Source of the DNA: Escherichia coli
GTDB lineage: Bacteria > Pseudomonadota > Gammaproteobacteria > Enterobacterales > Enterobacteriaceae
Reading direction: 5' to 3' (one strand)
DNA: 33,060 bases
Assembly (NCBI RefSeq): GCF_003334315.1
Contig: NZ_QOWR01000052.1
Position numbers and translations under genes: made by a program. Positions 89-22,327 of this stretch are shown here, piece after piece. Position 1 is the stretch's first letter. Each line of letters starts with the position of its first letter. The notes under the pieces are model-generated. The model was not told the origin of the DNA, searched no databases, and saw nothing but the letters and a program-made list of their open reading frames with translations.

Positions 89-634
89 TTATTTCAGCGT
101 CGGTTTGTCGGTTAAATGGGCGATTTCTCGGGCGAAATTCGCCACCTGCTCCCAATCGGTATAGACAACTTCTTTGCGCGTATCCGTTTCACCGCCTGAC
201 ATCTTCATAATCAGCTTGATCATAAAACGGTCGTACCAGCGATAACGTGGGTAACGCAGCGCCCCGGCAATGACCGCGCAGCGATCGGGACGCCATTGCG
301 AGTTCATCAGAAACTTGCGCGCGTAGCTGTTGGTCTGTGGAGTACGCTTCTCCGGTTTGCGCGCCACCAGATTCACGGAGTAAAAGGCGCTCGGCATCGA
401 ATTCAGCCGCGTCGCATGTTTTTTGACAAATTCCTGGAACGCTGAATGGTAGTGACCATAGCGAATAGAAGCACCAATGACCACACGGTCATAGTTTTCC
501 CACTGTGGTTCTTCAATGCGGTGCACATTGGCGACATCCGCCTGGATCCCCAGTTCTTTCAGTTCCGAAGCCAGGTAGGAGGCAATCTCGCGCGTTTGTC
601 CGTCCCTTGTTGAGAAAAGAATTAATGTTTTCAC
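89..634 (-). CDS. hemG: protoporphyrinogen IX oxidase HemG (flavodoxin-like, menaquinone-dependent)
   Basis: 181-aa ORF beginning [25 protein letters not shown], a flavodoxin-like fold; follows trkH as in E. coli. Confidence 0.9.
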
Positions 635-2135: not shown

Positions 2136-2750
2136 TTATTCTTCAATCGCTAACAATTGCAATGAACCACGGCTAAAATCCGCCAGCTTTGCGGAAAATT
2201 CAGCCACTTTCGCCGCCGGAAGCGCCACCCGCAGCAGAACGAATGCCTGATAATCACTGTTGATAATTTTGCCGTCACACTGCCCCAGCAACGCTTCAAT
2301 GCCGGTTAACTGACTATATTCACATTGCAAAGTATATTCGGTTAATGGCGTCTTGCGTTGGGTCGTTAGCTGGCGCAGCGCCTGATTCACGCCGCCGCCA
2401 TACGCTTTCACTAACCCACCGGTGCCAAGCAATATGCCGCCGTAGTAGCGCACTACCACAGCGGTAATTTCCCCGACGCCGCTGCCCATTAGCTGGGCGA
2501 GCATCGGTTTACCTGCCGTTCCCGCCGGCTCCCCATCGTCAGAGAACCCCAGCTGTTGTGAATCATCCGGCGCACCCGCCACCCACGCCACGCAATGGTG
2601 GCGGGCATCGGGGTGTTCTGCCCGCACCGATTCAACAAACGCTTTCGCCGCCTCAACGCCATCGGTATGCGCCAACAGCGTAATGAAGCGGCTTTTTTTG
2701 ATCTCTTCAACGACCGTGACCGGTGCCGCAGGAATTAACCAGCTTTCCAT
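2136..2750 (-). CDS. yigZ: IMPACT-family protein YigZ (UPF0029), function uncharacterised
   Basis: [31 protein letters not shown]...; the six-frame track starts one codon earlier at GTG 2753, but the ATG at 2750 gives the 204-aa form and overlaps the pepQ stop by 1 nt (TGATG). Confidence 0.85.
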   Translation of the reverse strand: MESWLIPAAPVTVVEEIKKSRFITLLAHTDGVEAAKAFVESVRAEHPDARHHCVAWVAGAPDDSQQLGFSDDGEPAGTAGKPMLAQLMGSGVGEITAVVVRYYGGILLGTGGLVKAYGGGVNQALRQLTTQRKTPLTEYTLQCEYSQLTGIEALLGQCDGKIINSDYQAFVLLRVALPAAKVAEFSAKLADFSRGSLQLLAIEE

Positions 2751-4081
2751 CACGCCAGTTTCAGATCCCGGGTCATGTTTTCCACGTTGTTTTCGTGGAT
2801 CACCACGTTGTCTTCGATACGAATGCCGCCGAACGGTTTCAGTGCTTCAATTTTCTGCCAGTTGAAGTGTTTGCTGAACTGCCCTTCACGCCACGGCGCC
2901 AGCAGCGATTCGATGAAGTAGATACCCGGTTCGATGGTTAACACCATGCCTGGCTGGAGAATACGGGTGCAGCGCAGGTACGGATATTTTGCCGGTGCCG
3001 CGAGATGCGTACCGCTATCATCCTGCATAAAACCAGCGACATCATGCACCTGGAGGCCCAGCGGATGGCCGATACCGTGCGGCATAAACGGTCCGGTGAG
3101 ATCGTTTTCGACCATCGCTTCTTCACTCATATCGGTGATGATTTGATGTTTACGCAGCAATTTGGCGATGCGCTGATGGAACTGGATGTGGTAATCCACA
3201 TAGCTGACGCCAGCTTTCATGGTGGCGATCAGCGCCAGTTGTTCATCATTTACGTCTTTCACCAGCTGTGCGTAGTCGTTGTCGCTTTTTGCCGACCAGG
3301 TACGGGTCAGGTCAGCCGCATAGCCGTTATATTCGGCCCCGGCATCCAGCAGGAAGCTGCGCATCTCTTCCGGCGCCTGATGATCCAGTTTGGTGTAATG
3401 CAGCACCGCAGCGTGTTCGTTGAGCGCCACAATGTTGCTGTAAGGTACGTCGGTATCACGATGACCGGTCGCGGTCAGATAGGCAATATTGATATCGAAC
3501 TCGCTCATGCCAGAACGGAACGCTTCTTCTGCCGCACGATGACCGTTGACCGCCATTTTCTGCGCTTCACGCATACAGGCCAGTTCGTACTCGGTTTTGA
3601 AGGAGCGGTAGTAATGCAGGTAGTCGATCACCCCTTTCGGGTTGATGTTGCTGGCCTCAATACCCAGTTGCAGCGCACGTTCTGGCACCGGACCGATATA
3701 ACCGATATTGCCGCGCGCAGCAGGCAGCAGGCTACCAATGCCATCGGCTTTCGGCAGCGCGATCACTTCCACATCTTCAGTCCAGAAGGAGGTCGGCAGC
3801 GGTTCGACGTTGTGCCAGTAATCAACCGGCAGATAAAACCACAGTTTCGGCTTGTTCACACCATCCACCAGCAACCAGCAGTTTGGCACCTGAGTTACCG
3901 GCACCCACGCTTTGAATTGCGGGTTCACTTTAAACGGATAGGGATGATCGTCGAGAAAAACATTGAACAGCTCGCCGGAGTGAATAAGTAACGCATCCAG
4001 CTTGAAGCGCGCCAGCGCATCGCGAGTCCGTTCTTGTAAGGTAGCTATATGATTTTTATAGAGCGAGGCCAGTGATTCCAT
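2750..4081 (-). CDS. pepQ: Xaa-Pro dipeptidase (prolidase) PepQ
   Basis: 443-aa [29 protein letters not shown]... with M24 metallopeptidase-type HxxGHxxGLxxHD region; divergent from fadB. Confidence 0.92.
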
Positions 4082-4228
4082 TTTTTACCCTTCTGTTTTT
4101 TTGACCTTAAGTCTCCGCATCTTAGCACATCGTTCATCCAGAGCGTGATTTCTGCCGAGCGTGATCAGATCGGCATTTCTTTAATCTTTTATTTGCATAT
4201 TTTTAACACAAAATACACACTTCGACTC

Positions 4229-4245
4229 ATCTGGTACGACCAGAT
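4229..4245. promoter_or_regulatory. FadR operator in the fadBA promoter
   Basis: Perfect palindrome ATCTGGTACGACCAGAT 26 bp upstream of the fadB ATG; matches the FadR operator half-sites (TGGT...ACCA) known at fadB. Confidence 0.75.
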
Positions 4246-4270
4246 CACCTTGCGGATTCAGGAGACTGAC

Positions 4271-6460
4271 ATGCTTTACAAAGGCGACACCCTGTACCTT
4301 GACTGGCTGGAAGATGGCATTGCCGAACTGGTATTTGATGCCCCAGGTTCAGTTAATAAACTCGACACTGCGACCGTCGCCAGCCTCGGCGAGGCCATCG
4401 GCGTGCTGGAACAGCAATCAGATCTAAAAGGGCTGCTGCTGCGTTCGAACAAAGCAGCCTTTATCGTCGGTGCTGATATCACCGAATTTTTGTCCCTGTT
4501 CCTCGTTCCTGAAGAACAGTTAAGCCAGTGGCTGCATTTTGCCAATAGCGTGTTTAATCGCCTGGAAGATCTGCCGGTGCCAACCATTGCTGCCGTCAAT
4601 GGCTATGCGCTGGGCGGTGGCTGCGAATGCGTGCTGGCGACCGATTATCGTCTGGCGACACCGGAGCTGCGCATCGGTTTGCCGGAAACCAAACTGGGCA
4701 TCATGCCTGGCTTTGGCGGTTCTGTACGTATGCCACGTATGCTGGGCGCTGACAGTGCGCTGGAAATCATTGCCGCCGGTAAAGATGTCGGCGCGGACCA
4801 GGCGCTGAAAATCGGTCTGGTGGATGGCGTAGTCAAAGCAGAAAAACTGATTGAAGGGGCGATGGCGATTTTACGCCAGGCCATTAACGGCGACCTCGAC
4901 TGGAAAGCGAAACGTCAGCCGAAGCTGGAACCGCTAAAACTGAGCAAGATTGAAGCCACCATGAGCTTCACCATCGCTAAAGGGATGGTCGCACAAACGG
5001 CGGGGAAACATTATCCGGCCCCCATCACCGCAGTAAAAACCATTGAAGCTGCGGCCCGTTTTGGTCGTGAAGAAGCTCTAAACCTGGAAAACAAAAGTTT
5101 TGTCCCGCTGGCGCATACCAACGAAGCTCGCGCACTGGTCGGCATATTCCTTAACGATCAATATGTAAAAGGCAAAGCGAAGAAACTCACCAAAGACGTT
5201 GAAACCCCGAAACAGGCCGCTGTGCTGGGCGCAGGCATTATGGGCGGCGGCATCGCTTACCAGTCTGCGTGGAAAGGCGTGCCGGTTGTCATGAAAGATA
5301 TCAACGACAAGTCGTTAACCCTCGGCATGACCGAAGCCGCGAAACTGCTGAACAAGCAGCTTGAGCGCGGCAAGATCGATGGTCTGAAACTGGCTGGCGT
5401 GATCTCTACAATCCACCCAACGCTCGACTACGCCGGGTTTGACCGCGTGGATGTTGTGGTAGAAGCGGTTGTCGAAAACCCGAAAGTGAAAAAAGCCGTA
5501 CTGGCAGAAACCGAGCAGAAAGTACGCCCGGATACCGTGCTGGCGTCTAACACTTCAACCATTCCTATCAGCGAACTGGCCAACGCGCTGGAACGTCCGG
5601 AAAACTTCTGCGGGATGCACTTCTTTAACCCGGTCCACCGGATGCCGTTGGTGGAAATTATTCGCGGCGAGAAAAGCTCTGACGAAACCATCGCGAAAGT
5701 CGTCGCCTGGGCGAGCAAGATGGGCAAAACGCCAATTGTGGTTAACGACTGCCCCGGCTTCTTCGTCAACCGCGTGCTGTTCCCGTATTTCGCCGGTTTC
5801 AGCCAGTTGCTGCGCGACGGCGCGGATTTCCGCAAGATCGACAAAGTGATGGAAAAACAGTTTGGCTGGCCGATGGGTCCGGCATATCTGCTGGATGTCG
5901 TGGGCATTGACACCGCGCATCACGCTCAGGCGGTGATGGCAGCAGGCTTCCCGCAGCGGATGCAGAAAGATTATCGCGATGCCATCGACGCGCTGTTTGA
6001 TGCCAACCGCTTTGGTCAGAAGAACGGCCTCGGTTTCTGGCGTTATAAAGAAGACAGCAAAGGTAAGCCGAAGAAAGAAGAAGACGCCGCTGTTGACGAC
6101 CTGCTAGTAGAAGTGAGCCAGCCGAAGCGCGATTTCAGCGAAGAAGAGATTATCGCCCGCATGATGATCCCGATGGTCAACGAAGTGGTGCGTTGTCTGG
6201 AAGAAGGCATTATCGCCACTCCGGCAGAAGCGGATATGGCGCTGGTCTACGGCCTGGGCTTCCCTCCGTTCCACGGCGGCGCGTTCCGCTGGCTGGACAC
6301 CCTCGGCAGCGCGAAATACCTCGATATGGCACAGCAATATCAGCACCTCGGCCCGCTGTATGAAGTGCCGGAAGGTCTGCGTAATAAAGCGCGTCATAAC
6401 GAACCGTACTATCCACCAGTTGAGCCAGCCCGTCCGGTTGGCGACCTGAAAACGGCTTAA
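4271..6460 (+). CDS. fadB: fatty acid oxidation complex alpha subunit (enoyl-CoA hydratase / 3-hydroxyacyl-CoA dehydrogenase / epimerase)
   Basis: ORF from ATG 4271 ([32 protein letters not shown]), 729 aa, with GGAG RBS at 4261-4264. The six-frame ORF starting at 4145 is an in-frame upstream extension with no RBS and overlaps the FadR site. Confidence 0.93.
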
Positions 6461-7633
<1,173 letters not shown>

Positions 7634-7639
7634 CCACTT

Positions 7640-7826
<187 letters not shown>

Positions 7827-7915: not shown

Positions 7916-8617
7916 TCAGATAAATGCAAACGCATCGCCAAACAGGCGATCTTCCCGCGCATTACGCTCACTGCAAAACAGGTCACGGGCAATTTTCGCC
8001 ATCTCAAAACGTCCGGCAATATAGATATCATGCTCTGCCAGCGTACCATGATCCTGCAATACCGCCGTTAACACGGTACCAGTACGCCCACGCCAGCCTG
8101 CTTCCGGTTGTTCAACCACCGGCACCACTTGCAGACCAGGGTGCTTTAACGAAAGCGCCTCAAGCTCGCAGAGATCATACAGATGCTGCTCTTCACGCCC
8201 GCCCCAGTAAATGGTGATATCACGGTTTGGGTTACGCGCCAACGCTGTCAGCAAAATCGAGCGGGCATAAGAGAACCCGGTGCCGCCCGCAATCAAAATC
8301 ATCGGACGCTCTTCATCATCGCGCAGCCACGCTTCTCCGTGGGGAATATCGACCACGATTTGATGATCTTTGAGGATGCGGTCCATGACTGCTTTCGCGT
8401 AAAGGTTGATTTCAGAAGCGCCAATATGCAGCTCGATAAACCCTTTTTCATCCGGCGTCGAGGCCATTGAGAACGGACGTTTGTCGCGCTCATCCATCAC
8501 TACCATCAAATACTGACCAGCACGAAAAGAAAAGGCCGCGTCTGGCACGATGCGGACACGATATACGGTATCCGTGATAGCTTCTACCGAGGTCACTTTA
8601 CAGCTTAAGGTTGTCAT
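7916..8617 (-). CDS. fre: NAD(P)H-flavin reductase Fre
   Basis: [32 protein letters not shown]... (233 aa from ATG 8617); the six-frame track begins 11 codons upstream. Ferredoxin-NADP reductase fold. Confidence 0.88.
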
Positions 8618-8662
8618 GCGCTTTCTCTGTCGGATCGATAAATAGGGCAAAACAAACGCGCA

Positions 8663-13277: not shown

Positions 13278-15520
<2,243 letters not shown>

Positions 15521-22091: not shown

Positions 22092-22327
22092 TTTTTCTTC
22101 CTCTAATTATATGTAAATCCTATGGATTTTGAATTTAGGGAAGGCGGCAAGTTTATTCATCCCCGGGAGCTTACTGAAGTAAGTGACCGGGGTGGAGAAA
22201 CGCAGCCAACGCACCATAAATTTAAAAGACGAAGGATTTTAGCCGTCCAGATGTTTACACATCCATAATTGGCGGTTACTGTATATTCCTCAAGCGCAAA
22301 TTATTCATGCCGAAGTGAAGGACTTTC
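22092..22327. promoter_or_regulatory. metE-metR divergent control region (promoters plus MetR/MetJ operator sites expected)
   Basis: 236-bp AT-rich intergenic region between divergent metE and metR; contains a TGAA-N5-TTCA motif (22316-22328) and AGACG-like met-box fragments (22226-22250). Individual sites were not resolved. Confidence 0.55.

Follow-up and report, generated by a model that had tools for sequence, protein, structure and literature searches.

The stretch of DNA that we analysed (33,060 nt, hereafter the window) contains the divergently oriented genes pepQ and fadB, with fadA following fadB. A 601-bp query taken over the pepQ–fadB site matched every one of the 5426 complete E. 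coli genomes, with identities of 95–100% and with pepQ and fadB as the annotated features, and the order of the genes (hemG, trkH, yigZ, pepQ, fadB, fadA, fre, ubiD ... corA) could be read from the annotation of a closely related strain. On the strength of these sequence matches, therefore, the window can be assigned to the Escherichia coli chromosome. It is ~98–99% identical over its whole length to the closest strain inspected (WCHEC020031), with two indels; coordinates are shared with that strain up to ~7.7 kb, which covers the pepQ–fadB region, and the indels lie beyond. The PGAP annotation of the intergenic region was taken from a strain identical to the window over positions 3900–4500. 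In the gene list of the 33-kb window, fadR is absent; E. coli is a species that carries fadR. The genes and the region between them are as follows:

2750–4081, minus strand: pepQ (Xaa-Pro dipeptidase), a 443-aa ORF, also annotated by PGAP; the divergent neighbour, with its start at 4081
4082–4270, no strand: the pepQ–fadB divergent intergenic region, 189 bp, delimited by the ORF list and the PGAP annotation
4145–4270, plus strand: spurious 42-codon upstream extension of the mechanically called fadB ORF, consisting of non-coding promoter and 5' leader
4271–6460, plus strand: the true coding region of fadB (729 aa), as given by PGAP, structures and codon periodicity
6470–7633, plus strand: fadA (acetyl-CoA C-acyltransferase FadA), a 387-aa ORF supported by annotation; the second gene of the FadR-controlled operon

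Within the intergenic region, the 17-mer ATCTGGTACGACCAGAT occupies positions 4229–4245, exactly where it had been placed by the original prediction, which described it as a perfect 17-bp inverted repeat. A repeat finder returned two arms of 7 nt each, ATCTGGT (4229–4235) and ACCAGAT (4239–4245), which are 100% complementary and separated by a 3-nt gap. Both arms are therefore as perfect as claimed. The central ACG, on the other hand, is not self-complementary (the reverse strand differs from the forward 17-mer at 3 positions), so that the 'perfect 17-bp' wording is loose and the element is properly a 7+3+7 repeat. Repeats of this form are expected ~0.011 times per 189 bp; in the whole window there are five (this site and four others), as compared to ~1.9 in shuffled sequences. 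For this 17-mer, 0.05 matches with up to 3 mismatches would be expected in the window. The inverted repeat at 4229–4245 is more than a product of chance.

A 2022 review gives the FadR consensus as aaCTGGTCnGACC(T/A)Gtt. When this consensus was tested on atCTGGTAcGACCAGat, we found CTGGT at 5/5 positions, GACC at 4/4, an A at the T/A position and the G in place, the only core mismatch, at position 8, being A in place of C. In each half-site FadR recognises a TGG triplet, which is contacted by Arg45 in the crystal structure (PMC3592433), and the recognition triplets of the present element, TGG at 4232–4234 and CCA at 4240–4242, fall one in each of the inverted half-sites. In a leave-one-out matrix built on six other published FadR sites, the fadB operator ranked 10th in the window, a low rank that is due to the weakness of this small and asymmetric training set.

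When compared with the characterised fadB operator, the element proved identical at 17 of 17 positions. The probe used for gel-shifts by Zhang et al. 2014 (fadBA-F, ACTTCGACTCATCTGGTACGACCAGATCACCTTGCGG) corresponds to window positions 4219–4255 (37/37 nt), and the FadR co-crystal oligonucleotide CATCTGGTACGACCAGATC corresponds to positions 4228–4246 (19/19 nt). Wild-type FadR binds the former probe in gel-shift experiments (Zhang et al. 2014), while the latter oligonucleotide was co-crystallised with FadR by Xu et al. 2001 and van Aalten et al. 2001, according to passages of PMC3592433 that quote these two studies. Expression of fadBA-lacZ rises more than 3-fold when fadR is missing (Zhang et al. 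2014), and the derepression of fadBA in fadR mutants has been reported as 5- to 10-fold (Feng & Cronan 2012, PMC3460868). Relative to the fadBA operator OB of E. coli K-12 (DiRusso et al. 1992; PDB 1H9T), the site has the same 17 bp and the same flanks, the same pepQ/fadBA context and the same position at the transcription start. The operator shows no differences, even though the strain of the window is not K-12; over 4205–4275 the window and C600, a derivative of K-12, are 100% identical.

We thus take the element at 4229–4245 to be the FadR operator of the E. coli fadBA operon, with a probability of about 97%. FadR binding at this site, release by acyl-CoA and repression are properties that it should have, judging from the literature on the identical sequence. 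Nothing in the evidence contradicts the identification, and the fadB operator is already known in full detail: it is the textbook FadR site, routinely employed in fatty-acid biosensors. The original prediction, made by its author from the raw sequence, was correct and carries little weight as a discovery.

The position of the operator relative to the promoter could be derived from published numbering. Feng & Cronan 2012 (PMC3460868) assigned a putative FIS site, TTGCATATTTTTAACACAA, to positions −36 through −18 in the fadBA promoter; the range is printed there as '-36 to 18', a typographical slip, and the paper is a secondary source for the +1. We found TTGCATATTTTTAACACAA at window positions 4193–4211, which puts the +1 at 4229. 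By this numbering the operator would span +1 to +17, its first base coinciding with +1. This is the position expected for FadR repression of fadBA, as had been surmised. The 2022 review similarly describes the FadR site of fadBA as overlapping the transcription start, an arrangement in keeping with repression. A strict sigma-70 consensus scan of positions 3950–4400 found no promoter, because the −10 element, CACACT, is weak; the promoter was consequently placed by combining the literature numbering with conservation. The resulting assignments are these:

4119–4127, minus strand: candidate extended −10 element for pepQ, TGCTAAGAT
4193–4198, plus strand: −35 hexamer TTGCAT, inside the putative FIS site (4193–4211), assigned with the help of conservation
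4216–4221, plus strand: −10-like hexamer CACACT, a putative assignment from geometry and conservation
4229, plus strand: putative transcription start (+1) of fadBA, derived from the published numbering of the FIS site
4229–4245, no strand: FadR operator of fadBA, ATCTGGT-ACG-ACCAGAT, with 7-bp inverted arms and a 3-bp centre, assigned by identity to the published operator
4260–4264, plus strand: Shine–Dalgarno sequence AGGAG, 6 nt before the ATG, assigned with the help of conservation

The promoter layout is accordingly TTGCAT, a 17-bp spacer, CACACT and then 7 nt to position 4229. According to the literature, ArcA (anaerobic repression) also acts on the fadBA promoter, and the effect of CRP on it is indirect, possibly through FIS.

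Two other features of the intergenic region deserve a mention. A 9-bp direct repeat, GAGCGTGAT, occurs at 4141–4149 and 4157–4165, the copies being 16 bp apart and located roughly between −64 and −88 relative to the fadBA start; it is not a CRP-type inverted site. In a cross-genus alignment of nine sequences, the GTGAT core of the second copy was unchanged in 9/9 and that of the first copy in 8/9. Moreover, there is a conserved block, GCATCTTAGCACA, at 4117–4129, whose minus strand reads TGCTAAGAT and resembles an extended −10 element. Of the 79 species loci, 66 contain ATCTTAGCA.

To describe the conservation of the site, we used the fadB loci of 80 species from ~25 genera of Enterobacteriaceae, with promoter counts based on 79 loci. 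The operator arms were unchanged in 75 of the 80 species (the first base was altered in one, the last two bases in four), and the TGG and CCA triplets were invariant in all 80, with the centre base varying (T in 47, C in 29, A in 4). Upstream, TTGCA was present in 79/79 loci and the 17-bp spacer to the −10 was fixed in 77/79; CACACT was likewise found in 79/79, and the 7-nt gap separating it from the operator in 76/79. Downstream, all 80 loci shared the ATG, the N-terminus MLYKG and a CAGGAG whose distance to the ATG does not change, and the 6-nt spacer ACTGAC between the Shine–Dalgarno sequence and the ATG showed single-position changes in a few loci. A column-by-column footprint yielded conserved blocks at the −35, at the −10, at the operator and from the Shine–Dalgarno sequence to the ATG, with indels occurring mostly at 4247–4253. 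The entire arrangement of −35, −10, operator, Shine–Dalgarno sequence and ATG is therefore fixed across the Enterobacteriaceae, according to this cross-genus footprint.

In Pseudescherichia vulneris and relatives (four loci: L068, L076, L081 and L082), the operator occurs as the variant ATCTGGTAAGACCAGTA, whose right arm is altered in its final two bases; in these same loci, an in-frame stop lies merely 24–27 nt upstream of the fadB ATG. E. albertii carries TG immediately ahead of a T at 4229.

Within E. coli, the 71-nt segment 4205–4275 was present in 5426 of 5426 complete genomes, and the polymorphisms common among the inspected strains fell outside the operator. Just over half of the complete genomes differed from the window by 1–3 bases in this segment. 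Three divergent strains were inspected, and in two of them (SCU-101 and ETEC6334) CT was replaced by TG at 4227–4228 (−2/−1), just outside the operator. ETEC6334, which belongs to the rarest identity band, also showed a C-to-T change in the right arm, converting GACC to GATC.

The mechanism of this operator is established knowledge, and the sequence and layout confirmed in the window are the ones that were studied; it would therefore work here as follows. A dimer of FadR, a GntR-family protein with a winged helix-turn-helix, would sit on the two inverted half-sites, reading TGG in each. Since the operator covers +1 to +17, just downstream of the −10, FadR bound there would block RNA polymerase and keep fadBA repressed. 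Long-chain fatty acids, once imported and activated, would give rise to long-chain acyl-CoA able to bind the C-terminal domain of FadR; the acyl-CoA-bound protein would then leave the DNA, with a predicted derepression of fadBA by 5- to 10-fold.

The fadB operator can be set against the other FadR repressor sites, namely those of fadL, fadD, fadE, fadIJ, fadH and fadM, with which it shares the 17-bp form aaCTGGTCnGACC(T/A)Gtt, a location over the −10/+1 region and a repression lifted by long-chain acyl-CoA. It is the most symmetric of the group, both of its arms being complete, whereas the right half is degenerate in most other fad sites. Furthermore, fadBA has a single FadR site and is repressed 5- to 10-fold, while fadL and fadD have two sites each and are repressed 2- to 3-fold (PMC3460868). 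The activator sites of fabA and fabB are recognised by the same protein through a related 17-bp motif, their cores being CTGATCGGACTTG rather than the CTGGTACGACCAG of the repressor site. These fabA and fabB sites are located upstream, at about −40, and there FadR activates transcription.

If the +1 is at 4229, the fadBA mRNA would begin with AUCUGGU-ACG-ACCAGAU, and it is conceivable that the repeat has a dual role, being at once the FadR site and, in the transcript, a stem-loop that guards the mRNA from 5'-end-dependent decay. Should this be the case, two constraints would be served by keeping both arms so strictly conserved; still, we deem the proposal unlikely, and the same holds for the smaller alternative that a FadR-like site inside hemG, described below, is functional. 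Even less probable, in our opinion, is that the inverted repeat is mainly a 5'-terminal RNA stem-loop, stabilising the fadBA mRNA or tuning its translation, with FadR binding as a secondary matter. The centroid fold of 4229–4300 does contain a 5-bp version of the hairpin, and it is the loop base that varies among species, not the arms. However, the hairpin is missing from the minimum-free-energy fold, and the leader does not fold better than shuffled sequences (z = −1.33, with 21 of 200 shuffles folding at least as well). In addition, compensatory changes were not seen, because the arms hardly vary, and such near-invariance does not favour base pairing over recognition by a protein. The published FadR binding, the crystal structure and the fadR-dependent derepression all concern this same sequence. 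With a leader fold that is not significant and no covariation in the repeat, a role of the transcribed repeat at the RNA level is unsupported.

The FadR-like sequence inside hemG (89–634, minus strand) is CGCTGGTACGACCGTTT, at 225–241 on the minus strand, which has the 11-nt core CTGGTACGACC in common with the fadB operator; a given 11-mer is expected 0.016 times in the window. This site was the top match of the small FadR matrix in the window. It lies in frame at hemG codons 132–137 (RWYDRF) and may be coding sequence only. There was no obvious promoter nearby in the surroundings of 225–241.

The proposal that the repeat at 4229–4245 is a chance palindrome, like the four other 7+3+7 repeats elsewhere in the window, or else the site of another GntR-family regulator, given the general pattern (N)yGT(N)xAC(N)y shared by the sites of that family (PMC3592433), is hardly credible in view of the ~0.011 repeats expected in 189 bp, of the exact coincidence with the sequence used for FadR gel-shifts and co-crystallisation, and of a position relative to the −10 that is conserved across ~25 genera.

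In the list of open reading frames fadB was called from a GTG at 4145 to 6460 (771 aa instead of 729), that is, 42 codons or 126 bp too early and straight through the operator, just as had been noted. In the window strain the frame is in fact open from 4076, and it includes in-frame GTG or TTG codons at 4145, 4193 and 4250, so that a FadB of 771 aa (or 755 or 736 aa) starting at one of these codons had to be considered. We regard such an extended protein as extremely improbable, and the comparative data effectively refute it, in keeping with the original proposal of translation from the ATG at 4271. In 62 of the 80 species, an in-frame stop interrupts the 126-nt extension. The spacing between operator and ATG is 41, 42 or 43 nt depending on the species, which shifts the frame between them. 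Divergence by codon phase is flat over 4145–4270 (0.17/0.16/0.16), whereas over the 300 nt following the ATG it is 0.077/0.022/0.359, the periodicity beginning exactly at the ATG. A Shine–Dalgarno sequence is missing before both 4145 and 4250, and two of the three codons, those at 4145 and 4193, precede the putative +1.

Protein data led to the same conclusion. The exact 729-aa protein, named FadB, was found on at least 1000 contigs, while neither the 771-aa version (from GTG 4145) nor the 736-aa version (from TTG 4250) occurred among ~15 billion predicted proteins. Homologues and solved structures begin at MLYKGD: the E. coli FadB of PDB 6TNM consists of a 14-residue tag plus residues 1–729 from MLYKGD, and the FadB of the window aligns with it end to end, with 9 substitutions; the Pseudomonas fragi enzyme (1WDK) aligns from residue 1. 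The full-length 729-aa product is FadB, an enoyl-CoA hydratase / 3-hydroxyacyl-CoA dehydrogenase that begins with MLYKGD and whose gene is followed by fadA. Hence the translation of fadB starts at the ATG at 4271, served by the AGGAG at 4260–4264, and the 126 nt upstream of this ATG are promoter and leader, non-coding. The 42-codon upstream frame is a longest-ORF artefact, cleanly dismissed by the comparative data. As to the further suggestion that automated annotation would misplace the start, it did not hold: in 5 of 5 E. coli strains the PGAP start corresponds to window position 4271. The misplacement is confined to a naive longest-ORF list and is absent from real automated annotation.

The same kind of artefact was seen for yigZ (2136–2753), whose longest-ORF start precedes the PGAP start by 1 codon. 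For fre (7916–8650) the longest-ORF start is 11 codons early, at TTG 8650 as against the equivalent of 8617 in the annotation, once the 99-nt offset is allowed for. We also observed that the 90%-identity cluster of the 729-aa FadB includes 387-aa FadA proteins, presumably a database clustering artefact caused, for example, by fused or mis-joined sequences.

Elsewhere in the window, the segment 7692–7769 (minus strand), between fadA and fre, matched the Rfam entry naRNA4, which is a nucleoid-associated RNA of REP origin. At ~7726–7732 the window is ~99 nt longer than WCHEC020031. The annotation of WCHEC020031 includes a tatD pseudogene; in the window, which is offset from that strain by indels after ~7.7 kb, tatD is intact. 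In the ubiJ/ubiB region, positions 14915–15166 (minus strand) produced a full-length Rfam match of 319.5 bits to a family listed as 'Erse small RNA'. Finally, the metE–metR intergenic region (22093–22237) measures 145 nt in the window as opposed to 26 nt in WCHEC020031, i.e., ~119 nt extra.
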